Below are positions 1-18,799 of a stretch of 18,799 nucleotides of DNA, piece after piece. The stretch comes from a bacterium (lineage in GTDB: Bacteria; Arandabacterota; Arandabacteria; Arandabacterales; JALGWA01): positions 1-18,799 of the forward strand of contig JASFEA010000060.1 in NCBI GenBank assembly GCA_050125095.1, given 5' to 3'. The position numbers and the translations under genes are program-made. Each line of letters starts with the position of its first letter. Position 1 is the stretch's first letter. The notes under the pieces were generated by a model that was not told where the DNA came from, did no database searches, and saw nothing but the letters and a program-made list of their open reading frames with translations.

Positions 1-896
1 CCCCTTCGCAGACCGGGCACTACGCTCCGGCGGTTATCAATGTGCGCGATATGGCCTATCCGCCGCCAGGGCTCTTCATTCTGGCCTATAACCTGTGGCT
101 GGGCAGCGACACGTATGTAGATAGATATGGAGAGAGTCTGCCGAGTGAATTGAAGCTCGATGCCAGCGCGTTCGCGACCGTTCCCGCCGTGTTCTGGGGG
201 TCCAGCTTCAGCCTGCTCGGCGGCGCGCGCTATCTGGTCGGCGTATCGCCCAACTACTTCACCGCCGACGGAAGGGTCATATTTGAGGAAGGCGAGGGCG
301 ATTCGACGGTTGCCAGGGTCGAAGAGGGCAGCGTCTCGGGATGGAGTGACCTGTTCATATCGCCCGTGACCCTCTGCTGGGCTCTGACCAATTTCGATCT
401 CACCTTCTCGTATGGTTTTGCGGCCCCCACCGGAAGGTACAATACGGGCGCCGACGATAACGTCGGCCTGGGCTTCTGGACACATCAGTTCCAGGGGTAC
501 GGCTACTACTATCCGTCTCCAAGCAAGGCAACTGCGCTTATGCTCGCCCTCACATACGAGCTCAACGGGAAGATCAAGGATGCAGATGTGAACCCCGGAA
601 ACCGGCTCTCCCTGGAGTGGGGCTTGAGCCAGTACCTAACCGAGCAGTTCGAAGTGACCGTGCAGGGTGGGCACAACTGGCAGATCAGCGACGACAGCGG
701 CAGCGACGTTTACTGGGACCCGAGCTTTCATGACCGGAAGAACACGATCGCTTTCGGCGGGAGTTTCTGGCCGTGGCCTGACTGGCTCAATATCTCGCTC
801 AAGTATGCCTTTGACTTCGGGGCCCGGGGGCGTCTTGAGGCCGATTACTGGATGCTCAATCTCATATTTCTTACAAATACTTTGACCGGAGAATAA
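1..896 (+). CDS. SphA / MetA-pathway-of-phenol-degradation family outer-membrane beta-barrel (5' end outside window)
   Basis: Frame 3 is open from the window start (PSQTGHYAPAVINVRDMAYPPPG). It contains family-typical GLSD-like 'GWSDLFISP' and 'APTGRY...NVGLGFWT' segments and alternating beta-strand patterns. Stop TAA at 894-896. Confidence 0.8.
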   Translation, partial: PSQTGHYAPAVINVRDMAYPPPGLFILAYNLWLGSDTYVDRYGESLPSELKLDASAFATVPAVFWGSSFSLLGGARYLVGVSPNYFTADGRVIFEEGEGDSTVARVEEGSVSGWSDLFISPVTLCWALTNFDLTFSYGFAAPTGRYNTGADDNVGLGFWTHQFQGYGYYYPSPSKATALMLALTYELNGKIKDADVNPGNRLSLEWGLSQYLTEQFEVTVQGGHNWQISDDSGSDVYWDPSFHDRKNTIAFGGSFWPWPDWLNISLKYAFDFGARGRLEADYWMLNLIFLTNTLTGE

Positions 897-957
897 CTAG
901 TTCATGCGGGTGATATATTCTGGATTTTCAGGGTGCCATGGAATTCGGGGGGAGTCA

Positions 958-1887
958 GTGAAGTGGCGTCGCCACTCGCGCGCCGGGAGGATGCTGGTCC
1001 TCTATCTCGTCCTGGCCGGGGTGCTGCTCCCAAGTTCCGCCGGTGCGGACCTAGAGCCCCGCTTTCTGGCACCGGCCCCCGTGGGATTGAACTCAGGTCT
1101 TGTGGGTTACTCCTACTCGGTGGGGAACGTCATGCTGGATGATGCGCTCCCGCTGGAGGGAACCGAGTCCAGGCTCAATGCCCTAACGGCCGGCTATGCC
1201 CGGACCGTGGATATACTGGGGCAACTGGGGCGAATATGGGTGGCCGTGCCGCTGGCCAATGGCAAATGGACGGGCGATGTCGAGGGAAGCGACAGCAGCA
1301 CGACTCGAAACGGTCTGGGGGACCCCATAATCGGTGTTGTCTGGCATCTCTATGGTGCTCCCGCCCTGAGTATGAGTGAATTCGCCTCCTATCGGCCTAA
1401 GACGATTGTTGGCTTGAGTATCAAGGCGAGACTCCCGTTGGGCCAGTATAGCAGCAGTCAATTCTTCAATCTGGGCACCGGGCGCTTCCAGATAAGCCCG
1501 CGAATCGGCCTTACTCATTATATCGGGAAATTCATACTGGAAGCCTATGCGAGCGCCTGGTTCTTCACAAGAAACGACGACTTCTACCGAGGAAACTCGA
1601 TCGAACAGGATGCCATGGTGGCCTTTCAGGTACATGCAGCCTACCGCTTCCGGCGTGGTTGGTGGGGAGCGGTCTCGTTCGGCCAGAGCTTCGGCGGGGA
1701 GACGAGGCTGAATGGGGTCAGGCAAGACAACTCACAGACTAACAACAGGGTTGGCGTTACTTTTGCCTTTCCGTTGGCCCGCACACATGCCTTGAAGATC
1801 GTCCTGACATCAGGCATCTCAACTCGCGCAGGCGCCGACTTCAACACTGTCGCGATAGCCTGGCAGCACCGCTGGGGCGCGGGGTGA
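958..1887 (+). CDS. Second MetA-pathway/SphA-like transporter (outer-membrane barrel)
   Basis: Signal peptide followed by DLEPR..APVGLN, GLGDP and 'PLGQY...NLGTGR' motifs. GTG at 958 follows GGGGAG; ATG 991 and the ORF start at 904 are alternatives. Confidence 0.75.
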   Translation: MKWRRHSRAGRMLVLYLVLAGVLLPSSAGADLEPRFLAPAPVGLNSGLVGYSYSVGNVMLDDALPLEGTESRLNALTAGYARTVDILGQLGRIWVAVPLANGKWTGDVEGSDSSTTRNGLGDPIIGVVWHLYGAPALSMSEFASYRPKTIVGLSIKARLPLGQYSSSQFFNLGTGRFQISPRIGLTHYIGKFILEAYASAWFFTRNDDFYRGNSIEQDAMVAFQVHAAYRFRRGWWGAVSFGQSFGGETRLNGVRQDNSQTNNRVGVTFAFPLARTHALKIVLTSGISTRAGADFNTVAIAWQHRWGAG

Positions 1888-2009
1888 TGGGCGCGGACAC
1901 GAGAACGACAAAGGCATGGGAGAGTGGGCATGTCAATAACGCGAATAACAAGACAAGGCGCAGAGGCACTGCGCGGGGAGACCGAGTCGCAGCGAAAGGA
2001 GATAGTATC

Positions 2010-3335
2010 TTGAGAGCAAACCGTCGAGAGTCGATTCGGCTGCACTGGACCTGGGTTGCCCTGGTTTCAATGCTCCTTCTTACGGTCCAGCCCGTCCTGG
2101 CGGCCGGCCAGGGGGCAGAGGATTATGAGGGCCGGATCGTCGATGAGGTCAGGATAACAGGGGCGAAGCACACCAAGGAACGTATCATCAGAAGAGAGCT
2201 TGCGTCCAGAGCCGGCCAGCCACTGGATAGCGAGAATATGGCCGAAGACAGGTCCAACCTGGACGCGCTTGGAGTATTCAGCCAGATCGAAGTGTATCCC
2301 ATGGAGGAAGAGGGGAGGCTCGTTCTCGTAGTCGACCTCAAGGAGACGTTCCGTTACCTGCCCACTGTCTCGCTTAAGATAGACGATGAAAACGGGATCT
2401 CAATCGGGGGCGGGCTCAAGGCCACCAATCTCTTCGGCAGGGCCATGTTCTTCTCCGGGACCGCCCTGTTCGGCGGCGCGACGACGATCGTCCTCTGGCT
2501 AAAGGACAACTGGGTCGTGGGGGACCATATCGGTTACGACCTCAAGTACTTCCACAGGGACAGGCGGAACGAGCTTTTCGGCTTCAATGAGCTCTCGGAC
2601 GAGGTGTTCCTGGAGATCGGGGGCCGGCTGGGCAAGCGAGGCCGCGCCGGCGTGCCGATCTCATTTCAGAGCATCAAGAGCGACACCGATGGGAAGACGC
2701 TCGACCCGGATAACAGAGACAACATGCTCTCGGTGGGGGGATTCATTGGCTACGACAGCCGCGATCTGATTTCCAACCCCCACAGCGGCTGGTACAGTGG
2801 GATCGACGCATGCCGGGTCTGGGCGCTTGACAGCGGGCGAGCGCGCTGGCTGGCGAATCTGGATGTGCGCAGGTATGTACAGATATCCGGTCCCCATATA
2901 GCAGCCCTCTTCTCTCTGCTCACGTTGAGCACGGGGTCGGTAGGGGTCGAGGTCGCCGAGTGGCAGCAGTACAGCCTGGGTGGGACGAGCAGCATTCGCG
3001 GCTGGGATATCGGCAGGCGCTACGGTAAGAGCCAGTTCATTAACACCCTCGAGTACCGCTACAACGTTCTGGAGCCAAGGAACTTCCAGTTCTTCGGTAT
3101 CAACGCTTCCCTCGGGATACAGCTCGCCGCCTTCGGCGACGCGGGTGCGGTGTGGAGCGAGCGTGAGGAATTCACGGATTCGTGGATAGCCGGGGGCGGA
3201 ATTGGCCTGCGGCTCATCATCCCCTATGTCGGCCTGGCACGCTTCGACCTCGGCTGGGGCGACAGGCCCTCGGGAGTCGAGGTGCATATCGGGGCCCAGG
3301 AGAAGGCAGATAAGGCGCGACTGCGCGTGAGATAA
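2010..3335 (+). CDS. Omp85/BamA-TamA family outer-membrane protein with a single POTRA domain
   Basis: Signal peptide, then POTRA (VRITGAKHTKERIIRREL...LGVFSQIEV), 'NLFGR', 'YDSRD', 'LGGTSSIRGW' (VRGF-like) and 'GGGIGLR' motifs. TTG at 2010 lies 8 nt after AAAGGAG; the ORF is open from 1884. Confidence 0.85.
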   Translation: MRANRRESIRLHWTWVALVSMLLLTVQPVLAAGQGAEDYEGRIVDEVRITGAKHTKERIIRRELASRAGQPLDSENMAEDRSNLDALGVFSQIEVYPMEEEGRLVLVVDLKETFRYLPTVSLKIDDENGISIGGGLKATNLFGRAMFFSGTALFGGATTIVLWLKDNWVVGDHIGYDLKYFHRDRRNELFGFNELSDEVFLEIGGRLGKRGRAGVPISFQSIKSDTDGKTLDPDNRDNMLSVGGFIGYDSRDLISNPHSGWYSGIDACRVWALDSGRARWLANLDVRRYVQISGPHIAALFSLLTLSTGSVGVEVAEWQQYSLGGTSSIRGWDIGRRYGKSQFINTLEYRYNVLEPRNFQFFGINASLGIQLAAFGDAGAVWSEREEFTDSWIAGGGIGLRLIIPYVGLARFDLGWGDRPSGVEVHIGAQEKADKARLRVR

Positions 3336-3387
3336 GTGTGGCGACACACTCAGCCGAGCAGTACTGATAAGCCGTGCGGCTTGACCA
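3333..3387 (+). rRNA. 23S rRNA 3'-terminal fragment (~55 nt, non-functional remnant)
   Basis: TAAG-TGTG-GCGA-CACA-CTCAGCCGAGCAGTACTGAT-AAGCC-GTGC-GGCTT-GACCA follows the pattern of the last two hairpins of bacterial 23S rRNA and is followed by a spacer and 5S sequence. Confidence 0.8.
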
Positions 3388-3431
3388 TCGCAATTATCTG
3401 AACGCTTACTAAATTGGTGCTTGTGATCTTT

Positions 3432-3517
3432 TTCCCATTTCGAACACGAAGGTTAAGCCCTCCAGCGCCGATGGTACTGCATGGGAGACTGTGTGGGAGA
3501 GTAGGTCGCCACCGGGC
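3432..3517 (+). pseudogene. rrf: 5S rRNA pseudogene with internal ~33-nt deletion
   Basis: TCCCATTTCGAACACGAAGGTTAAGCCCTCCAGCGCCGATGGTACTG...GGGAGAGTAGGTCGCCACCGGG is the 3' two-thirds of 5S. The segment equivalent to 4634-4666 of the second copy is missing. A T7 tract follows. Confidence 0.9.
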
Positions 3518-3550
3518 TTTTTTTATGTGGTCATCCGGCCCCCCGACTTC

Positions 3551-3579
3551 TTGACAAGCACATGTGCATCGATTATCCT
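3551..3579 (+). promoter_or_regulatory. Sigma-70-type promoter with palindromic operator candidate
   Basis: TTGACA (3551-3556), 17-nt spacer, TATCCT (3574-3579). Perfect palindrome GCACATGTGC (3558-3567) in the spacer. Confidence 0.7.
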
Positions 3580-3642
3580 CCAACTTAGTATTCTAGGGCT
3601 TTGGCACGGTGGCCCTGCGGCAGAACCTGACTCGGGGTTTGT

Positions 3643-4233
3643 ATGGCACAGGATACCTCTCCTAAAGCCGTTGTCGTATCAGGCCCAAATGGTTCGGGCA
3701 AGACGACATTTGCAAGAGAGTACTTGGAAGAGCACAAGAGTGAATTTCTCAGTGCCGATGACATAGCAGACGAAATCGCGCAGGGGGGCTGGGAGAATTC
3801 CAGAATCGCCGCCGGGCGCCTGTATTTCGAAAGGCTAGAGACACTAATTGCGGATGGAAAGGACCTGCTCATCGAGACAACTCTGGCCGGGAGGGTCTTC
3901 GGACGGATTCTTGATAAACTGAAGGGCCGTGGGTATTATGTCGTCCTGGTCTTCATCTACCTGAGGTCTGCAGATATGTGTCTCGCACGTATACGCGAGC
4001 GCACGAGAAAGGGCGGGCATGACGTGCCGGCAGACGATGTCATACGTCGCTTTTACCGGAGTTGCGCCAATTTCTGGGAGCTCTATAGACAGAGGGCCGA
4101 CCGTTGGTACCTGACAAGCAACTCGACGGTCGAGTTCAGGGATGTGGCCTTTGGTGTCGGAGAGGCGTTTGAAGTGGTTGACGAAGCACTTCTTGAAGAG
4201 TTTACTGAGATCGTACGCGGGAGGGATACTTGA
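3643..4233 (+). CDS. Zeta-toxin-like P-loop ATPase/kinase (COG4185-like)
   Basis: Walker A GPNGSGKTT, then 'ADDIA', 'ETTLAG' and 'RIRERTRKGGHDVP..IRRF' motifs typical of this family. Confidence 0.85.
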   Translation: MAQDTSPKAVVVSGPNGSGKTTFAREYLEEHKSEFLSADDIADEIAQGGWENSRIAAGRLYFERLETLIADGKDLLIETTLAGRVFGRILDKLKGRGYYVVLVFIYLRSADMCLARIRERTRKGGHDVPADDVIRRFYRSCANFWELYRQRADRWYLTSNSTVEFRDVAFGVGEAFEVVDEALLEEFTEIVRGRDT

Positions 4234-4433
4234 TGAGTTACAGCGACTCCTTTGATCCGGAGGTCTATAGGGAGTGTATTGAGATCCAGCGCATCGGGAA
4301 TCGGGCCGTACGCAAAGCCCAGGCCGAAAGTCTCAGGCAGGGTGTTCCGAACGTGTATGCGCACAACGGCTCGCTCTATTATGAGACTGCGGACAGTGAG
4401 ATAACGCTGGAAGATCCCTACGGCACCCCTTAG
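4233..4433 (+). CDS. Small (66 aa) partner protein, putative antitoxin
   Basis: TGATG stop/start overlap with the ATPase gene. The 'IGNRAVRKAQ..LRQGVPNVY..NG' pattern resembles small proteins found downstream of such ATPases. Confidence 0.7.
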   Translation: MSYSDSFDPEVYRECIEIQRIGNRAVRKAQAESLRQGVPNVYAHNGSLYYETADSEITLEDPYGTP

Positions 4434-4630
4434 TAGCGTCGACAATGCCCAGCCTCCGCAGTCAGCACGCCATGGCGGTCTTCCACTCCATTACAACGGA
4501 TCTGGCTTCCGCCCCTTTTGAATCATCGGATTGTCCGGCCAGCGGATAAATCCATACCAGGCGACTGAATAGCCGACGGGATCTGGCTACCGAGCGTAGC
4601 GAGCGTGCCTGACCCCAAGGCATCAGAAGT

Positions 4631-4745
4631 CCCGGTGGTAATTGCGGAGGGGCCACAAGCGTTCCCACCGAACACGATGGTTAAGCCCTCCAGCGCTGAT
4701 GGTACTGCATGGGAGACTGTGTGGAAGAGTAGGACGCCACCGGGC
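4631..4745 (+). rRNA. rrf: Orphan 5S rRNA gene, near full length but degenerate (probable pseudogene)
   Basis: Helix I CCCGGTGG (4631-4638) pairs with CCACCGGG (4737-4744). CCGAAC, GATGGTA and GAGTAGG motifs are present. Loop C reads CCCA--CCGAAC, 2 nt short. A T6 tract follows. Confidence 0.9.
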
Positions 4746-4922
4746 TTTTTTATGTGCGCTGTTGGTAATTGACGATGAATCTCCCCGTTGACAGTTGTCA
4801 CCGCCTGTTGACACAGCAAGAGTTTCCCCTCAGGGCATCGCCTGTAGTTAGTCCCTTGCTGTGCCGGCGCTTACGTCCCGACAACCCGTCCGGCCCGATT
4901 GTTGTTATACCTGCCTGCCTGT

Positions 4923-5522
4923 ATGGCCTCACTATACAGGCAGCGGCATCCCGAGAGCACGGTGCTCTACCGGGTGCTCGCCACCCACTTCGACTCCTTC
5001 CTCACCCGGTATGAAGCCCTGTTCCAGCATCGCTACGGATACCTCCGGCCGGTGGTGCGGGAGGTGGTGGAGCGCTACCTGGACTGCGCCAACCCCATGT
5101 GCGGGTTTGCCAGGATCCGCTGCCCGGCATGCGCCCGTGAGTATCTTCTCACCTTCTCCTGCAAGACCAGACATTTCTGCCCCTCCTGCCACGCCAGGCG
5201 GCGGGAGGCCTGGAGCATCTGGCTCGGCCGGCATCTCCTGCTGCCTGTGCCCCACAGGCAGGTGGTCTTCACCATCCTCAAGATGATAAGACCCCTCTTC
5301 AGATACAACAGGGCGCTCCTCGGAGATCTATGCATGGTGGCCGTAACAGCCATGGCCAAGTACATGAAGGCCTATGCAGAGAGAGACCTCATGCCCGGGG
5401 TGGCAGCGGTCATACAGACGTTCGGGAACCGCCTCAACTTCCACCCCCACCTGCATATGCTCATAACCGAGGGCGGGTCAGTCAAACCGGGAGCGCATGG
5501 AACGGAGCCCCGGGGCGAGTAA
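4923..5522 (+). pseudogene. IS91/ISCR-family rolling-circle transposase, N-terminal fragment (Zn-binding domain + HUH)
   Basis: YLDC...GFARIRCPAC...FSCKTRHFCPSC zinc-binding domain, PHRQVVFT, and QTFG..LNFHPHLHMLITEGG (HUH). Similarity ends at about 5478, followed by unrelated residues and a stop. Confidence 0.9.
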
Positions 5523-5616
5523 CGCGAAACCGACCAGGAGAATGCCCTCTGTCGATGAGTTCATCTAACTTCGGGCGGCCGTCGGCCGGCATGTTCCGGA
5601 CCCCGATTGGGCCGGG

Positions 5617-8600
5617 CTATCTCATGAGCAGCATCTTGCCCGTGTCTGTGAACTCTCCCGCCCTCATGCGCACGAAGTAGACGCCGGGTCCTGCCATTTC
5701 ACCTGCATCGTTCTCGCCGGTCCAGGCCACGGAGTGCCGTCCCGCAGGCCAGGCGGTTTCTGTAAGCAGACGCACGACCCTGCCCTCGGCGTCAAACACT
5801 TCCAGGCGCACGTCACATGGCTCGGGAAGCTCAAAGGCAATGACCGTACTCGCCTCGAAAGGATTCGGACGGTTCTCCCTCAGCGCGAAGGCAGCGGGGA
5901 GGTCGCTCTCTCTCCCGACGCCTGATGACGTATTCTCGACGCTGGATGCGCTGCCCTCATTGCCGGCGAAGTCGGTGGCAGTGACATGGTAGTAGTCATG
6001 CGCATCGTCCGTGACATCCATGGCCGTCCCGACTGTATAGCCTATGAGCAGGGCCGTCGGGTCGAGGCCGGGCGCGGCTGACCCGTAAACCGTGAAGTAG
6101 TCGAAGTCTTCCTCGGGACACTCTTCCCAGGCCAGGTCGGTTGGTGACGGCATGGTGAGGTTCAGGGGCGCGGAGGGTGCGAGGTTGTCGACGGAGTAGC
6201 CGCTGTCCACCGGCGAATCGAAATAGACGCCGGGTGTCGCCGTCAGGGCCGACACGAAGAACGTCGAGTATTGCATCCCCTCGGCAACCGTGGAATCCCC
6301 GAGCGTGGGTACGACTACGGCGTAATCGTCCTCGGCCCTTGCCGGGACTGCCGTGAGGAAGTGCCACTCGCCGGGCGGGTAGAGGACATCGGGCTTGATA
6401 TCCGTCGATTGCCGCTCTGAGGCTGTCTCAAGCAACGCGGGCTCAGAGCCCCCGCAGGTCTGCCCGTAGTCATAGTCTATCCTGCGGTAGACCGCATACT
6501 CGGTGACCGGTACTGCCGATCCGACGACATCGTACCCGCTCCTCGTCCACGACAGGGACACCTGCCGTCCCTGGTCATCGGGGATATCGGTTACGGAGGC
6601 GACGATTGGAAAGTCGTACAGCCAGTCGATCGCCAAATCCGAGCACAGCGGATTAACGCCACCGGAAGTATAGACATGGGTGGATCTCCAGTGAAGGTTG
6701 CTGCCGGGGCTGGCAAAGACCTCATAGCCTGCGCCGGGGAGGAATTCCTGCCAGGCGCCGCCACCGTCCGAACTCATCTCCCAGAGTATGGAGTCAGAGT
6801 AGGTTCCGCTCAGGCGCGCCTGCAGAATAGTCCCATCGGTCCCTGAGACCACCGTCGACCGGGCGACGTTCGCGCCGGCGTCGAAGTGCCGCTGGGAGAC
6901 CTCGATGATCTGGAGGTCCCCTTCACCGTCTGCGACATAGGCGTAGTCTCCGGAGATCGCAATCCCTCTGGCCCAGCTCGGCGTGTCGACGCTATCGGCC
7001 AGCGCGGGGCTCGTCGGAACACTTATGTCTATCACGTAGACACCCTGCAGAGAAGCTGTAACAAAAGCGCGATCGCCGGATACGTCCAGGGCCCATACCC
7101 AGCCCGGAGTGTTGCACACGCCCACGACTGCCGGGCTGGCCGGATTGCTGATGTCTACGACCGCAAGACCGGAGTAGTCTGCGAGATATGCGTAATCACC
7201 CGAGACCTTCACTCCGTATGCTGTACCCGGCGTGGTGCAACTGCCGGCATTCGTGGGGGCAGCGGGATTGCTGATATCCACGACCTCGAAGTGGTCACCC
7301 ACCGCGAGGTAGGCATAGTCTCCGGAGATAGCGATTTCATCGCCGTCATTCAGGGAGACATAGTTGGTTACGAACACCGGGTCTGTCGGGTCGCTTATGT
7401 CAATTATCTGGATACCCTGAGTTCCATCTCCCACATAGGCGTGATTGCCCGAGATCGCAATCCCTCTAGCCAGGCCGGGCGTGTCATAGCCGCCCGCAAG
7501 TGCGGGATTAGTCGGGTCACTGATGTCCACAACCGTCAAGCCGGCACTATAATCTGCTACATATGCGTAGTCCCCCTCGATCGCTATGCCATAGGCGGCC
7601 CCGGGCGTGACATAATTGCCCGCGAAGGCCGGGCTCGCGGGGTCGCTGATATTCACAACCGTGAGCCCGGCAGACCCGAAGCCCGCATATGCATAGTCGC
7701 CGGAGACCGCAACCGCGAAGGCGTCCTGGGAATAGCTGAAATCCGTCGCGATGACCGGCTTGATGGGATAACTGACGCGTATGACCTTCAGCCCGTCGGT
7801 GTAGTCCGCCACGTACGCATATTCTCCCGAGATCACCACGCCCCTGGCTGATCCGGGCAGATCGATGCCGCTTTCAAACGCGGGACTTGTGGGGTCGGTT
7901 ATGTCCACTGCCCTCAGGCCATTAAGGTCCGCGTAGTAGGCACAATCTCCCGAGACCGCAACGTCCGTTGCGAAGCCGTAGGACGGGTCATAAGCTCCTG
8001 CGGAGGCCGGATTCTCGGGGTCACTTATGTCTATCACCTGAAGACCCGCCGAATTGTCGGCTACATACGCATAGTCCCCCGAGACGCAGACGCTCCGGGC
8101 GAGACTGGGCGTGTCGTGAATGCCGGCAGATGCGGGATTGGCGGGGTCGCTTATGTCTATCACCTGGAGTCCAGAGTAGCCCACCGCGACATATGCATAG
8201 TCTCCCGCGAGTGCGATGCCATAGGCGAAATCAGCCGTGACGTATCGGCCCTCAAGTGCGGGGTTGGCGGGGTCGCTGATGTCAACAACGGTGAGCCCCG
8301 AGTCAGCATCGGCAATGTACGCATAGTCCCCCGCGATCGCGACACTGTAGGCGGTGCCGGGCGTTCCATAGCTTCCGGCAAGCGAAGGGTTCGTGGGATC
8401 TGTTATGTCCACAACCTGCAGGCCCGAGGTGTAGTCGGCGACGTGTGCATAGTTGCCTGAGATCGCGACGTCGATGGCGTGCACGGGCGTGTTATGGGTA
8501 TTGGCAAGCGTGGGGTTGGTGGGGTCTGAGATGTCTACTATGTGCAGGCCGGACCCCCCGGCAGCCAGATAGGCATAGTCGCCGTATATGGTCAGGTTCT

Positions 8601-8829
8601 CTATCTGACCGGACGTGGCGAGACTGCCCTCGATGGATAGTGCGAAAGGATGGAGTTTCGCCTCGCCGGCAAGTGTGTCCCACCAGGCTGTGGTCTGGAC
8701 CGTATCGCAATAGTCCAGGGTCGTGAAGTCCTCGACATAGCTGGTAACGACAGCCCCTGCCGGGGAAGACGACAGCATCGCGAACGCCAGGCACATTGCG
8801 GACAGGAATAGACAGGATGACTTAGACAT
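5617..8829 (-). CDS. Secreted LVIVD-repeat protein (14 repeats) with C-terminal FlgD-Ig/T9SS-CTD-like domain
   Basis: ATG 8829 follows GAGG and begins a signal peptide (MSKSSCLFLSAMCLAFAMLSSSPAGA). ~42-aa repeats 'V.ISGDYAYVAD...GL.VVDISDP.NP'. C-terminus 'NRPNPF...AGRHSVAWTG.ND.G....GVYFVRM'. Confidence 0.9.
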   Translation of the reverse strand: MSKSSCLFLSAMCLAFAMLSSSPAGAVVTSYVEDFTTLDYCDTVQTTAWWDTLAGEAKLHPFALSIEGSLATSGQIENLTIYGDYAYLAAGGSGLHIVDISDPTNPTLANTHNTPVHAIDVAISGNYAHVADYTSGLQVVDITDPTNPSLAGSYGTPGTAYSVAIAGDYAYIADADSGLTVVDISDPANPALEGRYVTADFAYGIALAGDYAYVAVGYSGLQVIDISDPANPASAGIHDTPSLARSVCVSGDYAYVADNSAGLQVIDISDPENPASAGAYDPSYGFATDVAVSGDCAYYADLNGLRAVDITDPTSPAFESGIDLPGSARGVVISGEYAYVADYTDGLKVIRVSYPIKPVIATDFSYSQDAFAVAVSGDYAYAGFGSAGLTVVNISDPASPAFAGNYVTPGAAYGIAIEGDYAYVADYSAGLTVVDISDPTNPALAGGYDTPGLARGIAISGNHAYVGDGTQGIQIIDISDPTDPVFVTNYVSLNDGDEIAISGDYAYLAVGDHFEVVDISNPAAPTNAGSCTTPGTAYGVKVSGDYAYLADYSGLAVVDISNPASPAVVGVCNTPGWVWALDVSGDRAFVTASLQGVYVIDISVPTSPALADSVDTPSWARGIAISGDYAYVADGEGDLQIIEVSQRHFDAGANVARSTVVSGTDGTILQARLSGTYSDSILWEMSSDGGGAWQEFLPGAGYEVFASPGSNLHWRSTHVYTSGGVNPLCSDLAIDWLYDFPIVASVTDIPDDQGRQVSLSWTRSGYDVVGSAVPVTEYAVYRRIDYDYGQTCGGSEPALLETASERQSTDIKPDVLYPPGEWHFLTAVPARAEDDYAVVVPTLGDSTVAEGMQYSTFFVSALTATPGVYFDSPVDSGYSVDNLAPSAPLNLTMPSPTDLAWEECPEEDFDYFTVYGSAAPGLDPTALLIGYTVGTAMDVTDDAHDYYHVTATDFAGNEGSASSVENTSSGVGRESDLPAAFALRENRPNPFEASTVIAFELPEPCDVRLEVFDAEGRVVRLLTETAWPAGRHSVAWTGENDAGEMAGPGVYFVRMRAGEFTDTGKMLLMR
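6895..8630 (-). repeat. 14 tandem ~126-bp LVIVD coding repeats (boundaries approximate)
   Basis: Counted in the translation. DNA-level similarity is visible, e.g. GGGGTC(G/A)CTTATGTCTATCACCTG near 8017 and 8143. Confidence 0.85.
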
Positions 8830-9154
8830 GTTGGGCCCCCTCTCGATGAATGAATCCTGAAGCGCTCCGGGCTGGCAGAGCTCTCCTTGACGGTGATTTA
8901 CAGCCCTTCCAGCATACCACAATCCGGGCCCTATTCCCAGTCCTATCAGCACGTGGCCGGCTCCAGAGGCGGTAGAGCCTGTCCCGGTGGAGGCAAAAAC
9001 CTGACTCTCAGAGTGGTACAAACGATCGGGGCAGGTCAACCATCTCATGCGTGTGTAGGCACTCCTCCGTCATGAAGTAGTTGCGGAGATCGTCCTGCCA
9101 CGCCTGCCAGTTTCCACCATCCGCGTGTTCCGACTTCCATCTCGGCAATGCATT

Positions 9155-9178
9155 TGGTATAATGGAGGCAAAGGAGGT
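9155..9178 (+). promoter_or_regulatory. Extended -10 promoter and ribosome-binding site
   Basis: TGgTATAAT at 9155-9163; AAGGAGGT at 9171-9178 before ATG 9186. Confidence 0.65.
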
Positions 9179-9185
9179 GCGAGTC

Positions 9186-9752
9186 ATGCCGGGAAAGCTA
9201 CTGGCTTTGTGCTGCGCTTTTGCCATTACCGCTGTGGTTGTACACCCGATTGCTTGCCGCTCCGCGGAGATCATAGACGTATCCGTGGCCGGACAGGACG
9301 ATATTAGCCAATATTACTTCTATGCCCTGGACGACGAAGGCGGTTTGTACCGGGCCTATGCGCTTAATTGGAACTGGGTTTGTTGTCTGGGCACCTATGC
9401 GGGTGCCGTGGGTATGGATTTTGGTGTTCAGTGTGTGGGGATGCAGATCAGAGGGTTCATAACTTTCACCAATGGCGATCTGCTTCCGGTCGACTTTGAC
9501 GGAACCCCTGGCCCGATTATCCCCGGCCCTGAAGGCGTATCGGGTATCGAGGAGATCTCGGTCAGGTTCGGCTGCACATACTATGGGGCGGATTACGAAT
9601 ATCTCGTTCAGATCCGGTCCGGGTGTACCACATGGTGCTACATAGAGGACGGCAATTTCAGTGAATGGTTCGGCCCGTTTGACATCGGCTCACTCCCCTC
9701 TCTGACGCAGCCCGGGTCCTGGGGCCAGATCAAGACGCAGGTCATCAGGTAG
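9186..9752 (+). CDS. Secreted Cys-rich hypothetical protein with C-terminal SWGQIK motif
   Basis: Strong RBS, signal-peptide-like N-terminus (MPGKLLALCCAFAITAVVV), ends PSLTQPGSWGQIKTQVIR. Confidence 0.75.
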   Translation: MPGKLLALCCAFAITAVVVHPIACRSAEIIDVSVAGQDDISQYYFYALDDEGGLYRAYALNWNWVCCLGTYAGAVGMDFGVQCVGMQIRGFITFTNGDLLPVDFDGTPGPIIPGPEGVSGIEEISVRFGCTYYGADYEYLVQIRSGCTTWCYIEDGNFSEWFGPFDIGSLPSLTQPGSWGQIKTQVIR

Positions 9753-9805
9753 TGCTGCAGGGGAGCAGACTGGGTCATTCGTGTCCGTGTCCCGGGGAGC
9801 AATCG

Positions 9806-10245
9806 CCTCAAACCGAGAAAGCCTCGCCCGGCTGGAGGGAACTCATAAGGAGAGTCTACGAGGTCGACCCGCTCACCTGCCCCGCCTGTGGCGCCGGGAT
9901 GAAGGTCATGGCCTTCATCACCGACTACGAAGTCATCGACAGGATAATCCACCACCTGGGAGTTGCCTTCACCCTTAAGAGGCCGCCACCGCCCGCCCGG
10001 CAGGAGGAACTCTACTGACTCCGATCGCTTACGCACGGCCCACAAAGCCCGTCACAGGGAGAACTCTGCCCTGATGGGGCTTTCAGGTTACCCGCCGCAT
10101 CGCCGTCGGCAGCCACAAGACCGGATCTCTAACCCGAGAGCCTCTTCTTGAAGCAATTCCCCTGACCCCCATGGCTCCCACCGCTCCGAAATCCTCGGAA
10201 AACCCCCGCATCGCATCTGGCCGGGAAATCGAAATTCCTATGGTT
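9806..10245 (+). mobile_element. IS91/ISCR 3' end fragment, copy 1 (transposase tail + oriIS-like end)
   Basis: Highly similar to 12732-13181. Encodes WRELIRRVYEVDPLTCPACG...RPPP (stop 10018) and ends GGGAAATCGAAATTCCTATGGTT. Confidence 0.85.
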
Positions 10246-10596
10246 GCTGAGATGAAAGGGGAGAGCGTAACATCACTCCTCGGGAGACTCGTACATGACC
10301 TAAGCGAGGAACTCACCCTTGAGGACCTACAAACCATGCTTCCTTACAGCGAGGGAGAGCTCAGGGATTGTCTGGAGATCTTGAAGATTCCCGACGGGCT
10401 CGAGACCCTTCTTCAAGAGCAGGCCGAACAGGCCGAGCGTGAGCGGCCCCACATCCTCTCATTCGTCGTAGACGACGCGGAGCCCGTTGAAGAGGCCATA
10501 ACGGCCGCCTCACGGCGAAATGGGGGCCTTACGCGAGGCAGAGCCCTTGTTGAGATAGCGCGCGCCTACACAGGCGAGGATGAGGCCAATGAATGA
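10240..10596 (+). pseudogene. 5'-truncated phage-type gene, probably the C-terminal part of a ParB-like protein
   Basis: The ORF begins at the IS end. Helical acidic sequence (LVHDLSEELTLEDLQTMLPY...LSFVV...VEEAI...RGRALVEIA) sits directly upstream of, and overlaps, a terminase-small-like gene. Family call is from recall. Confidence 0.5.
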
Positions 10597-11017
10597 GCGA
10601 GAGCACCACAAGAAGGCCTTTGAGTTCTACTACGCGCTCGGGGAGGCAAGGAGCTACCGGAAGGTCGCAGAGGAGTTCTCTGTCTCCCTGGGTACGGTGA
10701 AGCTCTGGGGGAGGTCCTTTGGCTGGAAGGGGAAGATACGCGAGCGGGATACCGAGGTCGCCCGGGCTATGGCCGACCGCAGCATGAAGGATGGCATAGA
10801 ACGGAGCGTCAGAAACAGCAAGATCATCGAGATGGGGCTTGTCCAGGTGGCCAAGGCGATAGCTGAAGGCAAGGTCAAAATGACCGTGTCGGACCTTGAC
10901 CGGCTTATCAGGCTGGAGGAGTACCTGCGGGAGGAGGTCGAGCCGAGGCAACAGAAGATCGTTGTGGTCTGGGGAGACAGTGATGATGAGACAGACGACG
11001 AGCTCGGTGACGATTGA
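10589..11017 (+). CDS. HTH protein resembling phage terminase small subunit
   Basis: 'AFEFYYALG..RSYRKVAEEFSVSLGTVKLWGRSFGW' N-terminal HTH, helical middle, and C-terminal 'KIVVVWGD' plus acidic tail. Confidence 0.6.
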   Translation: MNEREHHKKAFEFYYALGEARSYRKVAEEFSVSLGTVKLWGRSFGWKGKIRERDTEVARAMADRSMKDGIERSVRNSKIIEMGLVQVAKAIAEGKVKMTVSDLDRLIRLEEYLREEVEPRQQKIVVVWGDSDDETDDELGDD

Positions 11018-11052
11018 CTCGATTGGGCGAGAATTTCTCTTGGCAAGAGGGA

Positions 11053-12114
11053 CTACTTGAACATGGCCTTTATCGAGCCCCATGTGGTCGATTTCACAGC
11101 GCCGGGGCAGTCGTCAGGCGTGATAATCCTGGTATGCGTGGAATCCACCCACCCGACATAATAGACATCTCCATGGAACTTGGTTTCGAAGTCCGGGCAC
11201 TCTGCCCCCCAGTAATTGAGTTTGGCCATAACGCCATTGACCCCGCCAGAATGCTCATACCATATATCATAACTCGCGTTGTCATAGAAGTCATTGGCAT
11301 CCGCTGGATTGAGCCCACCGTTGAAACCGGGCGCGGCCAGCGGCGGATCTGCATAGATGTAGACCGCTATGTCGAGGTTGTGGGCAATCGTGTTACCTGA
11401 GCAGTCGCCTCCGCAGTGGCCTTCGTAGTATAGCCCGTAGAAGTGAGAATAGGTTATCTCATTGCCGTCCAGCATCGGGGAGGAGTCTATTATCTCGGCC
11501 CCATAGCCACAATTAGTTATCGTGTTGTTCACAAACGCCGGTCGGCCTGGGTCAACCACGTCCCAGGCACCGATTCCAGCACCACAATCCCTCACCGTGT
11601 TGCTTCTGAACACAGGCTTCCACCACTCAGCTGATGAGTCCTCAAAATACATGCCGTAGCTCACGTTCTCCATGACGCAGTTCTCGACTAATAAGTCGGT
11701 ACAATCCACACACTTGACACCGTACGTAAAACCCACAATAGGGCAACCGGGAGCACCGCGTATGGTAAGACCTGAAGCAATCACCCCCTCGCTCCGGTAA
11801 ATGTAAACGCCCGAGCTTGGGCCACAGAATTCAATCGCGGTTACTTCCGGCCCCTGCTCGCTGAAAAGGGCGACACTATCCGGCATAGAAATGCGAGTTT
11901 CGTATGTGACTTCATATATTCCCGGTGCCACTAGGACCGTGTCCCCCGCCGACGCAGAATCGAGCCCAGCGTGGATCGTCGGGAATTCGGATGGAACCAA
12001 CAGAGTACGTGCGTTAATCCGGGCCGGAACCAATAGGCATAGCAGGCTGGCGACCAAAAGAAGGGGCCTCCTAGTGTCCGAGATGAAATCCAGTGGTCTG
12101 CAGCTGACATACAT
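11053..12114 (-). CDS. Secreted right-handed parallel beta-helix (NosD/pectin-lyase-fold) protein with C-terminal TWGSIK motif
   Basis: Signal peptide, then 'VPSEFPTIHAGLDSASAGDTVLVAPGIY' and repeated 'NNTIT/GNEIT/GNTIA' strands; ends VKSTTWGSIKAMFK. ATG 12114 follows GGAG. Confidence 0.85.
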   Translation of the reverse strand: MYVSCRPLDFISDTRRPLLLVASLLCLLVPARINARTLLVPSEFPTIHAGLDSASAGDTVLVAPGIYEVTYETRISMPDSVALFSEQGPEVTAIEFCGPSSGVYIYRSEGVIASGLTIRGAPGCPIVGFTYGVKCVDCTDLLVENCVMENVSYGMYFEDSSAEWWKPVFRSNTVRDCGAGIGAWDVVDPGRPAFVNNTITNCGYGAEIIDSSPMLDGNEITYSHFYGLYYEGHCGGDCSGNTIAHNLDIAVYIYADPPLAAPGFNGGLNPADANDFYDNASYDIWYEHSGGVNGVMAKLNYWGAECPDFETKFHGDVYYVGWVDSTHTRIITPDDCPGAVKSTTWGSIKAMFK

Positions 12115-12134
12115 ATTCTCTACTCCCATATCAT

Positions 12135-12164
12135 AGCTTATCACGCGCCAGTTCTGAAGGTCAA
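12135..12164 (-). promoter_or_regulatory. Sigma-70-type promoter for the beta-helix gene
   Basis: Minus strand: TTGACC, 18-nt spacer ending TGA, then TAAGCT. Confidence 0.55.
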
Positions 12165-12365
12165 GTAGCGAAGTGCCTACTCATCGCATATGAACGGATC
12201 CCGCGTCCCAGCGGGACCTAGACCCAACCACGCTGCAGAATCGACTTGACTCCCTTCAGCGCCATCTCTATTATCGAGTCGCTCTGGAGCGAGCTGCTGC
12301 AATTGCATGCTGCGAGGATTTTGCTTTGAAAGGAGTGTCCAAGATGGTCGCACGTCTTTGGCCGT

Positions 12366-12944
12366 CTAATCATAAGCCCCGAGATTCGGGATAAGATCCT
12401 CTCCTGGCGCCACACCGGATTCAATGTCCACAGCGAGGTGAGAACCACGACACCCCAAGACGCCCGGAGGGTGGCCATGTACATGGCCAAGCCCATCGTG
12501 GCTCTGGGGCGCCTCTCATTCAATGGGACCCAGGGCAAGGTCGTCTACCGCTACGGCAAGGGCGGTGCCGATAAGGTGGAGATGGACTATCTGGACTTCA
12601 TCGCCCGCGTCACCGCCCATATCCCCGATAAGGGACAGGTGATGATCCGCTACTACGGCCTCTACTCCAATGCCCACAGGGGCAAGGAGAGAAAGCGAGG
12701 TCGGGCCGCATCGGCCATGCCGGTCCTTGCACCTCAATCCGAGAGAGCTTCGCCCGGCTGGAGGGAACTCATAAGGAGAGTCTACGAGGTCGACCCACTC
12801 ACCTGCCCCGCCTGTGGTGCCGGGATGAAGGTCATAGCCTTCATCACAGACTATGAAGTCATCGACAGGATAATCCACCACCTGGGAGTTGCCTTCACCC
12901 TTAAGAGGCCGCCGCCGCCCGCCCGGCAGGAGGAACTCTACTGA
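12366..12944 (+). pseudogene. IS91/ISCR-family transposase, C-terminal fragment
   Basis: ILSWRHTGFNVHS...YMAKP (catalytic Tyr)...DFIARVTAHIP...IRYYGLYSN...WRELIRRVYEVDPLTCPACG. There is no N-terminal half in frame (stop at 12327-12329). Confidence 0.9.
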
Positions 12945-13181
12945 CTCCGATCACCTTAGCACGGCCCACAAAGCCCGTCACAGGGACAACTCTGCCCTGA
13001 TGGGGCTTTCAGGCAACCCGCCGCATCGCCGGCGGCAGCCACAAGACCGGATCTCAATCCCAACAGCCTGATCCTGCAGTAATCCCCCGGCACCCGGGGC
13101 TCCCACCGATCCGGTCTCCCAGGAATAACCTCCGCATACCATGAAATCGCATCAGGTCGGGAAATCGAAATTCCTATGATT
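12732..13181 (+). mobile_element. IS91/ISCR 3' end, copy 2, with oriIS-like terminus
   Basis: Direct repeat of 9806-10245. Ends GGGAAATCGAAATTCCTATGATT followed by CAAG. Confidence 0.85.
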
Positions 13182-13348
13182 CAAGCGCGACACTGTATAT
13201 TGCGGAGTGGTGGGATAACCACTTTCCGGACCTGGACAAAGTCACCAGCCCTCATCTGACCTTACCCCTGAAACGAGACTAGTTTCTGCCTTAGAGATCT
13301 GCTGTCTTCGAACTTCCGGCCAAGAGACCTGGGGGCAGCCGTTTTGCT

Positions 13349-13513
13349 GACGACTCATACATCGGGCCGGAGCGGCCGGGGGATGTGCATGAGGCCAACT
13401 TCATCTACTCAAACCTGAACGATGGCTGGTTCACCTATTTCCGGACCTATGCTCCCACCGAGGCCTGTTTTGACAGAACGTGGAGGCTGCTGGACATCGA
13501 ACTCCTGAAATGA
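13349..13513 (+). pseudogene. C-terminal fragment of a DUF1214 (DUF1254/DUF1214) protein
   Basis: Translates YIGPERPGDVHEANFIYSNLNDGWFTYFRTYAPTEACFDRTWRLLDIELLK*, matching the typical 'YFGP..P....NWI......WF.Y.RLY.P.E..FD..W.L.DIE' ending. No start codon; in-frame TAG at 13292-13294. Confidence 0.7.
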
Positions 13514-13632
13514 TGAAGCCGGAGGCAATGGCCGTCGCCAGTAAACCAAGCCCTTCAACCTGAAGCAGGTCTAGTGGCTCTCCTCTTTGGCGGGAATCAA
13601 GAAGAACAGCAGGAACTTCAGGCGAGTGCCGC

Positions 13633-14757
13633 TCAGGGCTTTCGGTAGACGGATAGCATTAGTACATCATCCTCCATGCCCACAGTACCGCAGGCATTAA
13701 GCACCTGGCTGTACAGCCGCTCAACGAGGCCATGCGCTCCGCTCATCATCACCTCTTTCACGGCCTCGGCAAGGCCCTCTTCGTCCAGCATTTCTCCGTC
13801 ATTGCACTGAGACTCCGTGGCGCCGTCAGTGTAGGCGAGAAGCAGGTCCCCCGGGGCCAGGTCTATTTCGCCTGCTTCATAGTCCATTCCTGCGATTATG
13901 CCAAGAGGCAGACCGTGGCTTTCAAGTGTGTTCACGGTACCATCAGCCGCACGAAAGTGGAGAGGCGCGCAGTGACCTGCATTCGTGTACCTGACTCGCG
14001 CGCTCTCCATGTCTACCACCATATAAAGCGCAGTAGCGAAGTTCTCATCCTGCAGAAAGCGCGTGATCTCTGAGTTCAAGGCATTTACAAGCTCGGCCGG
14101 CTCGCCGGCCTTAGCCCTGAGGCTCTCCCCCAGACTCTTAAGCAACATCGTGCAGAGCGATGCAGAAACCCCATGTCCCCTGACGTCGGCAATCAGGACA
14201 CCGTAGTGGTTCTCCCCGACGTGGTAGAGATCGTAGAAATCTCCTCCTATTAGATCGTGGGGGTAGTAGCACACTTCCATCTGAACCGCTTCGCTTGCGG
14301 GCATGGACTCGGGCAGGATGTACCGCTGAACCTCCTTGGCAAGTTCGAGATCCCTCACATTGTCGGTCTCGTCCCGGAACACCTCAATGCCTCCGATAAC
14401 CTCTCCACCCTCGTCGATTAGAGGCGCAACATCAACTGTGACGGCAATGCGCTCCCCATCAGCCGTCTTTGCGAAGACAAGCAGGGGCTCGTCGCCGGCC
14501 CTTCCCAGAAGCATGGATCTGTGAAGGGGACAACGGTCTGAAGGGCAAAGACGGTCACCGTCCTTGTTGATGTGACTCAGCACATCGTCGTGACAGGGCT
14601 TCCCCTCTACATCGGACGCCCTGTAGCCTGTGACCTCTTCAGCCTTGCGGTTCCAGAGCACTATTCTCCGATCCTGGTCCGTGATGTACACTCCGATGTT
14701 AAGGTAATTGAGAACCTTACGTAGCGCTTCAATATCAAGAGGGAATCTGTCAGCCAC
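13633..14757 (-). CDS. PAS-domain PP2C/SpoIIE-family phosphatase (RsbP/RsbU-like)
   Basis: N-terminal PAS (WNRKAEEVTGY), then GGDFYD, IADVRGHGV, NAGH, YTDG and DD motifs. GTG start after AAGGAG. Confidence 0.9.
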   Translation of the reverse strand: MADRFPLDIEALRKVLNYLNIGVYITDQDRRIVLWNRKAEEVTGYRASDVEGKPCHDDVLSHINKDGDRLCPSDRCPLHRSMLLGRAGDEPLLVFAKTADGERIAVTVDVAPLIDEGGEVIGGIEVFRDETDNVRDLELAKEVQRYILPESMPASEAVQMEVCYYPHDLIGGDFYDLYHVGENHYGVLIADVRGHGVSASLCTMLLKSLGESLRAKAGEPAELVNALNSEITRFLQDENFATALYMVVDMESARVRYTNAGHCAPLHFRAADGTVNTLESHGLPLGIIAGMDYEAGEIDLAPGDLLLAYTDGATESQCNDGEMLDEEGLAEAVKEVMMSGAHGLVERLYSQVLNACGTVGMEDDVLMLSVYRKP

Positions 14758-15069
14758 TGGAGAATCTCCTTGCCGGTAGCAACCCGCCGTTCCTCAACGG
14801 GTCTGGACGACTTCGATACAACCCAGAATAACTTCCGCACGGGGCGGCGTCCAGCCAAACCTGACATTGGTGACCTCTACCGGTGGGAAAATCGTCCTTT
14901 GGTGTGCGTAGCGGTCCCCCGCTACCACACCAAGCTCTTAAATCATAAGCGGTTCGGGGGCGTTCTCTTTGCAGCAGGTCACGGAGAGCTGGGAATCTAT
15001 CCGTTGGCTTCTGTGTATCGGCTCTCTTCCCCTCTCATTCGCTGCCTCCTTCTAGGCCTACAGGCCTAG

Positions 15070-15265
15070 CAGAGTGCAGCCTAAATCACACCGCCTCCGT
15101 GTCCGGTTCTTGCTGACGACTCACATTGTTTGTCGTCAGAGCATCCGGACTCGCAAAGGTTTGATATTAGGCTACACATTTCCCTTCCACTTGTAGTTTC
15201 TACCACCATTGCTCGACGTCAGATGAAAGTGGACACGGAGAGGTGTTGAATTAGGCTGCACTCTG
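15070..15265. mobile_element. ~196-bp non-coding element with ~35-bp imperfect terminal inverted repeats (MITE-like)
   Basis: Left end CAGAGTGCAGCCTAAATCACACCGCCTCCGTGTCC (15070-15104) versus right end GGACACGGAGAGGTGTTGAATTAGGCTGCACTCTG (15231-15265); the first 15 bp are a perfect inverted match. Flanked by CTAG and TTAG. Confidence 0.7.
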
Positions 15266-15326
15266 TTAGCCTGATCTGGGGCGAAAGGAGGCAGCCATGG
15301 GACAGGAAGCGAGCCGCAGTCCGGAG

Positions 15327-15533: not shown

Positions 15534-15535
15534 CC

Positions 15536-18791: not shown

Positions 18792-18799
18792 CGACGACA

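Follow-up and report, generated by a model that had tools for sequence, protein, structure and literature searches.

A relic of a ribosomal RNA operon tail behind an Omp85-family gene, and related tail pieces that border gene cassettes in a candidate bacterial phylum

The stretch of DNA analysed here (the window) is the 18,799-nucleotide (nt) contig JASFEA010000060.1 of a bacterial metagenome bin (GCA_050125095.1), below called C60. Within it, the stop codon of a gene for an Omp85-family protein runs directly into sequence that resembles the end of a ribosomal RNA (rRNA) operon, or rrn. Why does the tail of an rRNA operon stand behind a protein-coding gene, and does it still serve the ribosome? 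The tail sequence, which we call copy A (positions 3333-3524, + strand), has no ribosomal function; it is a scar and not a working rRNA gene. Our preferred explanation, to which we give a probability of roughly 0.6, is that copy A is a non-functional relic of recombination-driven turnover of gene cassettes at the rrn tail, and that the block of DNA containing it was possibly moved by an IS91-family element.

The bin comprises 3.35 Mb in 268 contigs (91% complete, 3.45% contamination), and was compared with 16 genomes of its order and 18 of its phylum. Its rRNA genes are one 16S (C44:8808-10386), one 23S (C44:10821-13892) and one high-scoring 5S, all on another contig, C44. The working 5S occupies C44:14109-14225 (96.8 bits), and the native spacer between 23S and 5S is 216 nt long (C44:13893-14108). 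Given that the C44 flank upstream of the 16S gene is syntenic with the rrn flank of four relatives (G002, G003, G005 and G008), C44 holds the ancestral rrn site. A related strain from another metagenome provides a further locus for comparison, L136.

Two blastn segments align copy A to the native operon. Window 3333-3440 corresponds to C44:13837-13942 (87% identity over 108 columns, E 5.6e-25), and window 3432-3523 to C44:14140-14231 (98.9% over 92 columns, E 5.3e-31). The parts of copy A are the following.

3333 to 3388, + strand: relic of the last 56 nt of the 23S gene; aligns to C44:13837-13892 with 54 of 56 positions identical; its junction with the Omp85 gene is also present in L136.
3389 to 3432, + strand: relic of the start of the spacer (the first ~46-50 of 216 nt), AT-rich, within the match to C44:13837-13942.
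3433 to 3436, + strand: TCCC microhomology at the gap; the two blastn segments overlap at 3432-3440.
~3437 to 3517, + strand: 3′ two-thirds of a 5S gene (approximately positions 37-117), with the 5′ strand of helix I missing; 80 of 81 positions identical to the functional 5S.
3518 to 3524, + strand: T-tract of seven T, which also ends the native 5S; possible terminator of the Omp85 operon.

An earlier sequence-only reading of this locus had placed the beginning of the 23S end at the Omp85 TAA, which the alignment to the C44 23S gene bears out. That reading had also described an AT-rich spacer, a 5S and a T-tract behind it. All of these are present, but the spacer and the 5S are incomplete, as listed above. 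Its proposal to align the region to the intact rrn operon of the genome, including the spacer, gave matches for the 23S tail, the proximal spacer and the 3′ portion of the 5S, and an Rfam scan confirmed its statement that the window has no 16S and no further 23S. The covariance-model search that it suggested had a divided outcome. Rfam RF00001 matches 3401-3517 with 43.2 bits (cut-off 38), but the large-subunit model RF02541 has no match at E<=10 on 3200-4900, the 56-nt piece included. Because of this negative result, the 23S assignment of 3333-3388 depends on the genome's own 23S gene. In the RF00001 match only the 3′ part pairs, the 5′ columns of helices I-III are unpaired, and true homology starts at approximately position 33 of the 5S. 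Copy A therefore lacks the full length and the complete set of helices I-V that a functional 5S has.

The gap within copy A was originally described as a microhomology-mediated deletion of 33 nt between two TCCC tetramers. The tetramer is indeed found at the gap, but copy A lacks 206 nt of the native operon, between the TCCC at C44:13935-13938 and the TCCC at C44:14141-14144. Coordinates read from the sequence divide these into 170 nt of spacer and the first 36 nt of the 5S. The smaller figure arose because copy A had been compared with a second copy in the window and the spacer had been assumed to abut the 5S. The alignment shows an out-of-register TCCC-TCCC join, by which most of the spacer was lost together with 36 nt at the start of the 5S.

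The gene in front of copy A is not damaged.

1884 to 3335, + strand: intact Omp85-family gene (Pfam Omp85 69.8 bits, POTRA 35 bits; comparison of the C-terminus).

Its TAA stop codon (3333-3335) overlaps the first bases of the 23S-derived stretch, the join being at TA(A/G)GTG. The C-terminus ...RVR* agrees with that of a paralogue on contig C15 (C15:13041-14372, 67% amino acid identity over residues 40-483, to the last residue) and with that of the orthologue in G010. The earlier description of an amputated rRNA tail fused to the stop codon of a protein gene agrees with the overlap of stop codon and 23S stretch; the protein gene itself is not truncated. A block that starts with the last 56 nt of the 23S gene and runs through spacer, 5S and cassettes adjoins an intact Omp85 gene. 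We considered the 3′ flank of the C15 paralogue as a decayed 23S tail and rejected it: 17 of 23 bases agree when the sequences are anchored at the stop codon, but 88 of 300 shuffled sequences reach the local alignment score. It is possible that a flank of the C15 type offered the microhomology that guided the join of Omp85 and 23S.

The junction at 3333, on which the sequence-only reading depended, is spanned by further data. A Logan contig of run X1 (269 nt; this run may be the source sample) covers 3128-3396 with zero differences, and L136, from another data set, has the identical Omp85/23S junction in a sequence that is 95% identical to window 1-3440. A second Logan contig, of 84 nt, covers 3378-3461 and reaches 25 nt beyond the TCCC junction, which is below the 31-nt rule of the search tool.

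After the junction, L136 continues with an entire spacer, an entire 5S-like gene, a T-run and an AbiE cassette, whose AbiEi is homologous to the AbiEi behind the working 5S on C44 (83% over 936 columns). Since the tail in L136 is undeleted, the gap in copy A is a later, secondary event. The 23S tail of the window differs from that of L136 at 6 of 56 positions, and the three neighbouring upstream genes differ at 46 of 554 fourfold degenerate sites. The similarity of these two values fits the neutral decay of a relic. The earlier proposal that a native rrn tail was copied here and then decayed is supported by both the undeleted tail in L136 and the nearly neutral drift.

Copy A is also a mosaic, with a left part of the L136 type, whose spacer is nearer to the L136 spacer than to that of C44, and a 5S part that agrees with the working 5S at 80 of 81 positions and with the L136 5S at 74 of 79. 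Two different tail copies may therefore have been brought together by the TCCC join, which may have removed whatever lay between them, for example an AbiE cassette.

Copy A had been taken for a dispersed rRNA pseudogene standing by itself, which does not hold. A blastn search of the genome with the operon tail gave six rrn-tail pieces, which lie on C44 or C60, always on the + strand, and which all end in the 3′ end of 5S and a T-tract. The pieces border gene cassettes, and the pattern recurs across the order.

C44:14109-14225, + strand: working 5S (blastn, Rfam).
C44:15903-16071, + strand: spacer (C44 coordinates 13918-14005) joined out of register to 5S from coordinate 14145 (blastn).
C44:16903-16933, + strand: last 25 nt of 5S and T-run (blastn).
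C44:17517-17590, + strand: 5S from C44 coordinate 14168 onward (blastn).
Window 3333-3524, + strand: copy A (blastn).
Window 4555-4754, + strand: copy B, consisting of the last 76 nt of the spacer, a full-length 5S-like gene and a T-tract; 93% identical to C44:14033-14234.
Within copy B, + strand: spacer 4555-4630; 5S-like gene 4631-4745 (Rfam 74.7 bits, 2-nt deletion in loop C); T-tract 4746-4751.

The 5′ starts of the pieces vary, corresponding to C44 coordinates 13837, 13918, 14033, 14140, 14168 and 14201. The 5S-like gene of copy B is an orphan, with 76 nt of spacer but no 23S upstream. Its 2-nt loop-C deletion is a derived feature that it has in common with the 5S of L136.

The cassettes between the pieces encode AbiEi/AbiEii (PADLOC 218 and 349 bits), a PEGA-domain protein, an RHH and ParE pair and, in the window, a zeta-like protein. 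Consensus matches place a separate promoter-like site in front of every cassette, some tens of bases behind the T-run. The cassette in the window, between copies A and B, has these parts.

3551 to 3579, + strand: promoter-like site of the zeta cassette, TTGACA-17-TATCCT (consensus match only, 10 of 12).
3643 to 4233, + strand: zeta-toxin/AAA_33-like P-loop protein (Pfam Zeta_toxin 42.2 bits, AAA_33 44.9 bits).
4230 to 4433, + strand: open reading frame (ORF) of 67 codons that overlaps the zeta-like gene.

The 67-amino-acid product belongs to no family in Pfam, NCBIfam, PADLOC or PHROGs. The zeta-like gene precedes this partner, whereas epsilon/zeta systems usually have the antitoxin gene first. 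A zeta cassette between a 5S 3′ piece and the spacer and 5S of copy B was also found in contigs of the public runs X3, X4 and X5 (97-98% identity). Parts of the window that these runs leave uncovered carry no information, and the depth of public-run contigs was not used for copy number.

Similar pieces occur in related genomes. Twelve of the 16 genomes of the order have any 5S match, and seven of these twelve have extra 5S-derived pieces (G000, G002, G003, G004, G009, G012 and G013). Exactly one full 5S is present in four of the twelve. The remaining genome, G001, has only a truncated piece, in which 23S sequence (88 nt or more) is followed by 14 nt of spacer, 19 nt of filler and the final 85 nt of the 5S; its deletion differs from that in the window. 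With the covariance model, extra or degenerate 5S matches were seen in 6 of the 13 genomes of the phylum with a match versus 1 of 13 in an equally large control phylum, counts that are descriptive only, as kin are not independent. Among 23 genomes outside the phylum, no extra fragment was found apart from one genome with two operons, with a DNA query that is insensitive at that distance.

In relatives, the cargo genes next to the pieces encode, among others, SoFic (G002), a type IIG restriction-modification enzyme whose neighbours are Mrr- and RadC-like (G004), PDC-M05A (G009), PRiA4_ORF3 proteins (G003 and G009) and an alpha-amylase (G013). The fragment in G013 equals the intact 5S except for one base over ~100 nt and its flanks are unrelated, which points to a recent duplication or gene conversion. 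Two further arrangements were seen in the relatives. At the end of a G002 contig (C30; L031:5768-5857) stand the first ~87 nt of a 5S; the sequence inward of them is unrelated, which makes this a 5′ fragment. In G009 (C25; L030:385-4257) the first 5S has an insert of ~45 nt and no 23S tail upstream; there are also a 5S 3′ fragment fused to a short 23S-like stretch and another copy that resembles 5S.

We propose the following course of events. Accessory DNA would have been added behind the rRNA operon by joins that were homologous on the rrn side and illegitimate, using microhomology, on the other. With each addition a stretch of the tail, of varying length, would have been duplicated, most of all the final 30-90 nt of the 5S and the T-tract. 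The duplicated pieces could then recombine, giving deletions (such as the TCCC join), swaps (AbiE in L136 versus zeta here) and conversion (80 of 81 positions identical to the working 5S). The pieces would thus act as portable homology for the swapping, deletion and conversion of cassettes, and perhaps as ready-made transcript ends. Finally, the block would have arrived at the Omp85 locus, by movement or by copying, for which the IS91-family element at its far end may be responsible.

That element forms the right end of the block and is interrupted by other genes.

~4775 to 13181, + strand: IS91-family insertion sequence (IS); ends taken from alignments of copies, the left end lying 23 nt after the T-tract of copy B.
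4899 to 5522, + strand: 5′ half of the transposase gene (Pfam Zn_Tnp_IS91 74.7 bits and the N-terminal part of Y2_Tnp).
~5477 to 12370: insertion of ~6.9 kb that splits the transposase gene; the sister species G002 aligns to 4664-5476 and to 12370-13181.
5617 to 9048, - strand: LVIVD-repeat protein of 1143 amino acids with an FlgD_ig tail, in the insertion (ORF and domain).
11053 to 12144, - strand: NosD/beta-helix protein, in the insertion (ORF and domain).
~12371 to 12944, + strand: 3′ half of the transposase gene (C-terminal part of Y2_Tnp).

Approximately 104 nt of the transposase gene were lost at the insertion. The gene is intact in G002 (418 amino acids, NCBIfam IS91 210.6 bits with a cut-off of 125), where a full 5S is followed by SoFic, encoded on the opposite strand, then by a 5S 3′ fragment and the IS, with the same junction before the IS. 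As in other IS91-family elements, the transposase is of the HUH Y2 type with a zinc-binding N-terminal domain, and a probable target tetranucleotide (CTTG/GTTC) abuts the oriIS end. After the right end, ...AAATTCCTATGATT (13168-13181), comes CAAG, the reverse complement of CTTG.

According to a publication on this family, a CTTG/GTTC tetranucleotide lies next to oriIS in the IS91 family, and the stop at terIS fails in 1-14% of events, so that adjacent DNA is carried along (PMC13181058). The rrn pieces lie on the terIS side of the element. Given that the DNA on this side is exactly the rrn pieces and cassettes, one-ended transposition is plausible. Neither an empty site nor a second copy of the unit was found for block 3333-13181. 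We therefore hold only tentatively, at clearly less than even odds, that the block reached the Omp85 locus by IS91 one-ended transposition. Since the transposase gene is broken, any such event would be old. In 2 of the 40 loci checked with Rfam, a relative of the transposase follows a complete 5S in the same orientation, at a distance of 0.5-0.75 kb, which hints that this IS group prefers the ends of rRNA operons. The two loci (L117:1-3073 and L089:1076-2780) come from unrelated public genomes, labelled as an Aminicenantes chromosome and an “uncultured Eubacteriales” metagenome-assembled genome.

How well do other explanations account for these observations? That the Omp85 contig was chimerically joined to rRNA reads by the assembler is hardly credible. 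The source is a metagenome bin and the Logan contigs break at the 5S repeat, as an artefact might lead one to expect, but the X1 contig crosses the junction without a difference, and L136, from its separate data set, already contradicts this explanation. In addition, the 23S-tail and spacer part is only 87% identical to the real operon, so copy A is a distinct locus. A second idea needs neither transposition nor a cassette mechanism: a complete second rrn operon once stood behind the Omp85 gene, and one deletion took its 16S and nearly all of its 23S. Such an amputation in place would readily yield a contiguous operon tail that begins inside the 23S, and the full spacer and 5S retained in L136. 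The identities to the working operon (96% in the 23S tail, ~70-80% in the proximal spacer, 99% in the 3′ part of the 5S) also resemble those of two operons that diverged while functional. However, the working operon on C44 is the one whose flank is syntenic with rrn in the four relatives. Moreover, Omp85 orthologues occur in only 5 of the 18 genomes (G000 among them), and the orthologue in G010 is followed by a DUF1214/DUF1254 gene, not by rrn. The amputation would also leave the other four pieces and those of other genera unexplained, and we regard it as rather improbable.

Equally improbable, in our judgement, is that the 3′ part of the 5S is the attachment site (attB) of integrase-driven islands, with the fragments as attR-side duplicates and the cassettes as decayed or integrase-less elements mobilised in trans. 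The layout is like that of island arrays at transfer RNA (tRNA) genes, in that an intact gene comes first and is followed by cargo that is parted by same-orientation 3′ fragments, and the cargo consists of defence and toxin-antitoxin genes. Same-orientation partial copies of the 3′ end of an RNA gene do flank inserted DNA here, and the near-identical G013 fragment with its unrelated flanks would also suit recent integration. By contrast, we found neither a recombinase gene beside the arrays nor a constant repeat boundary. No integrase, resolvase or transposase family was detected in 72 ORFs around pieces in 15 loci of relatives; these ORFs are part of 112 listed, and those that overlap rRNA genes or are far from the pieces were left out. 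Family searches of C44 and C60 gave no tyrosine or serine recombinase, a test that short contigs limit, and a distal recombinase in the relatives could likewise be missed, as many of their contigs are short. In the genome, PF00589 matches are confined to C66, C38 and C224, PF00239 has none, and PHROGs, PADLOC and NCBIfam searches with the unknown ORFs beside the pieces revealed no recombinase. The fragments start at scattered 5S positions (~22-25, 33-44, 52-65 and 93), three starts being inside the spacer or the 23S. Copy A and the second C44 piece contain spacer or 23S sequence and internal out-of-register joins, which duplication of an attachment site does not give. Scattered starts and the out-of-register joins in these two copies and in G001 argue against one fixed crossover site. 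We also rejected an integron cassette array: there is no intI at the arrays, the repeats are derived from rRNA, and they fold no better than shuffled sequences. The idea had come from a GTTAAGC in the 5S that fits GTTRRRY, and was dropped because intI is missing and the motif is on the wrong side.

A further explanation, modelled on the tRNA-linked repeats (TLRs) of E. coli and compatible with the one we prefer, is that the 3′ end of the 5S and the T-tract were kept as an exapted RNA module, such as a terminator, processing site, stabiliser or small RNA. At least the last 25 nt of the 5S and the T-run are retained in all six pieces, and each downstream cassette has its own promoter-like site, as would suit such a module. 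For pieces that start before GGTTAAGCCC, a pairing of AAGCCC and GGGCUU is predicted immediately ahead of the U-run. Transcription and processing have been described for the TLRs that follow 5S genes in E. coli (PMC8144298). However, no piece folds better than shuffled sequence (z -1.15 to +1.58), a consensus terminator scan of 3200-5000 found no classical hairpin with T-run, and the parts derived from 23S tail and spacer drift neutrally. We consider a retained RNA module unlikely, although less so than the attachment-site explanation. All 22 runs listed are DNA. The pieces may end transcripts, and 3518-3524 may end that of the Omp85 operon.

Several observations weigh against our preferred explanation of cassette turnover at the rrn tail. 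The bin comes from a metagenome, and C44 and C60 could stem from two strains. The Logan contigs stop at 3461 and restart at 3483, across a repeat at 3441-3502, and the link between the left half of copy A and the zeta cassette comes from the original assembler only. The loop-C deletion common to copy B and L136 implies that pieces also spread from copy to copy, which is not predicted by a simple serial model in which each piece was once the working 5S. The folding results and the terminator scan of 3200-5000 given above offer no support for a terminator role. As for the proposed movement of the block, the junction between 5S and IS that G000 and G002 have in common could simply be inherited. 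Furthermore, the left boundary of the block in the 23S (GGTG|TAAG) has no CTTG, GTTC or CTCG, which would be expectable for an IS91 surrogate end. No donor sequence or circular intermediate was seen, and we infer every mechanistic step.

Attempts to link the two contigs, or to find the Omp85-rrn arrangement elsewhere, were unsuccessful. The end of C44 and the start of C60 have no common sequence by which they could be joined. C60 was also considered as lying downstream of C44, but the extra 587 nt that L136 has upstream of C60 correspond to a CorA-like C-terminus and not to the end of C44. In G001, adjacency of Omp85 and rrn is unproven: C69, with the Omp85 orthologue, ends 8 codons before the stop, C51 begins inside the 23S, and the two do not overlap. 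The region downstream of the Omp85 gene in G010 had a weak tblastx similarity to the IS91 zinc domain, which Pfam did not uphold. The right flank of the window (13182-18799) and the C44 tail (17591-20502) gave only paralogous matches or none in G001, G002, G003, G005 and G008.

Short intergenic sequences at window ~15206-15340 and ~14873-14931 have matches of 79-87% in other genera of the order (G001:C9, G008:C101 and C134, and G003:C30). No Rfam family and no tRNA was found in these two segments, which may represent an unknown conserved non-coding element. Directly 3′ of the last 5S piece on C44 is a non-coding stretch of ~240 nt (L006:8608-8844, equal to C44:17606-17842). It resembles the leader upstream of the Omp85 paralogue on C15 (L053:3803-4037, equal to C15:12801-13035), with 71% identity over 195 nt, a common TTGACA and conserved blocks. 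This stretch could be a promoter or leader element, or the remnant of a former Omp85-type locus.

The locus has some practical consequences. Annotation pipelines will call such relics 5S genes, as copy A passes the Rfam cut-off. The tail repeats break assemblies at the rRNA locus, and estimates of rRNA copy number that are based on 5S are inflated. If the rrn tail is portable homology, this would account for a turnover of defence and toxin-antitoxin genes that needs no dedicated recombinase, in lineages that are known from metagenomes alone. A bolder version, which we find doubtful, is that the rrn tail, meaning the end of the 5S and its T-tract, is the organising module of an integrase-free cassette system in this candidate phylum, and that IS91 one-ended transposition seeded the second array behind Omp85. 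If this were true, a tail piece would be part of each defence or toxin-antitoxin cassette, from the outset or by later acquisition, and would be at once a transcript end and a universal landing pad, and conservation of 5S between species would permit homologous exchange between strains and species.

Genomic islands at tRNA and transfer-messenger RNA (tmRNA) genes, flanked by direct repeats of part of the gene, are the textbook case, while islands built on repeated pieces of an rRNA operon tail are barely described. Like the former, the arrays here begin with an intact RNA gene, followed by accessory, defence and toxin-antitoxin cargo with same-orientation 3′ fragments. Unlike them, the target is the 5S or rrn tail, no integrase was found, the starts vary, spacer and 23S parts are included and internal joins are illegitimate. 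With respect to IS91 one-ended transposition, the orientation of terIS towards the rrn pieces and the CAAG/CTTG at the oriIS end are as the published account describes (PMC13181058); by contrast, neither a second copy of the unit nor a surrogate-end motif was found, and the transposase gene is broken.

Our literature search found no description of arrays of rrn-tail pieces bordering defence cassettes, and on bacterial 5S fragments or pseudogenes it returned almost only eukaryotic work. The nearest cases are an island in SAR11, an orphan 5S in Francisella and the TLRs of E. coli. In SAR11, a hypervariable gene island is located between the 23S and the 5S, and the rRNA genes were proposed as anchors for homologous recombination that spread island variants (PMC2217521). 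Both systems thus have variable DNA beside rRNA genes, but the portion of that paper seen describes no arrays of partial rRNA, and here the cargo is behind the 5S and each unit ends in a tail piece. The Francisella sequence, of 119 bp, is derived from 5S, unlinked from rRNA operons and conserved in the genus (PMC3479022). It resembles our pieces in its origin and its location away from any rRNA operon, but it is a single sequence, for which the accessible part of the report mentions no 23S or spacer part and no cassette array. The E. coli TLRs (rrA, rrB and rrF behind the 5S) are copies of the final 18-19 bp of the tRNA or 5S gene that precedes them (PMC8144298). As in our arrays, these 3′-end repeats are downstream of the gene and in the same orientation, and they lie next to terminators. 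However, TLRs are short non-coding units within the operon and are conserved in sequence (PMC8144298). The pieces described here have the 3′-end repeat, of at least 31 nt, but are not short non-coding units in an RNA operon. Instead, the repeats are 31-200 nt long and drift neutrally, and they alternate with protein-coding cassettes of 0.6-1.7 kb that have their own promoter-like sites.

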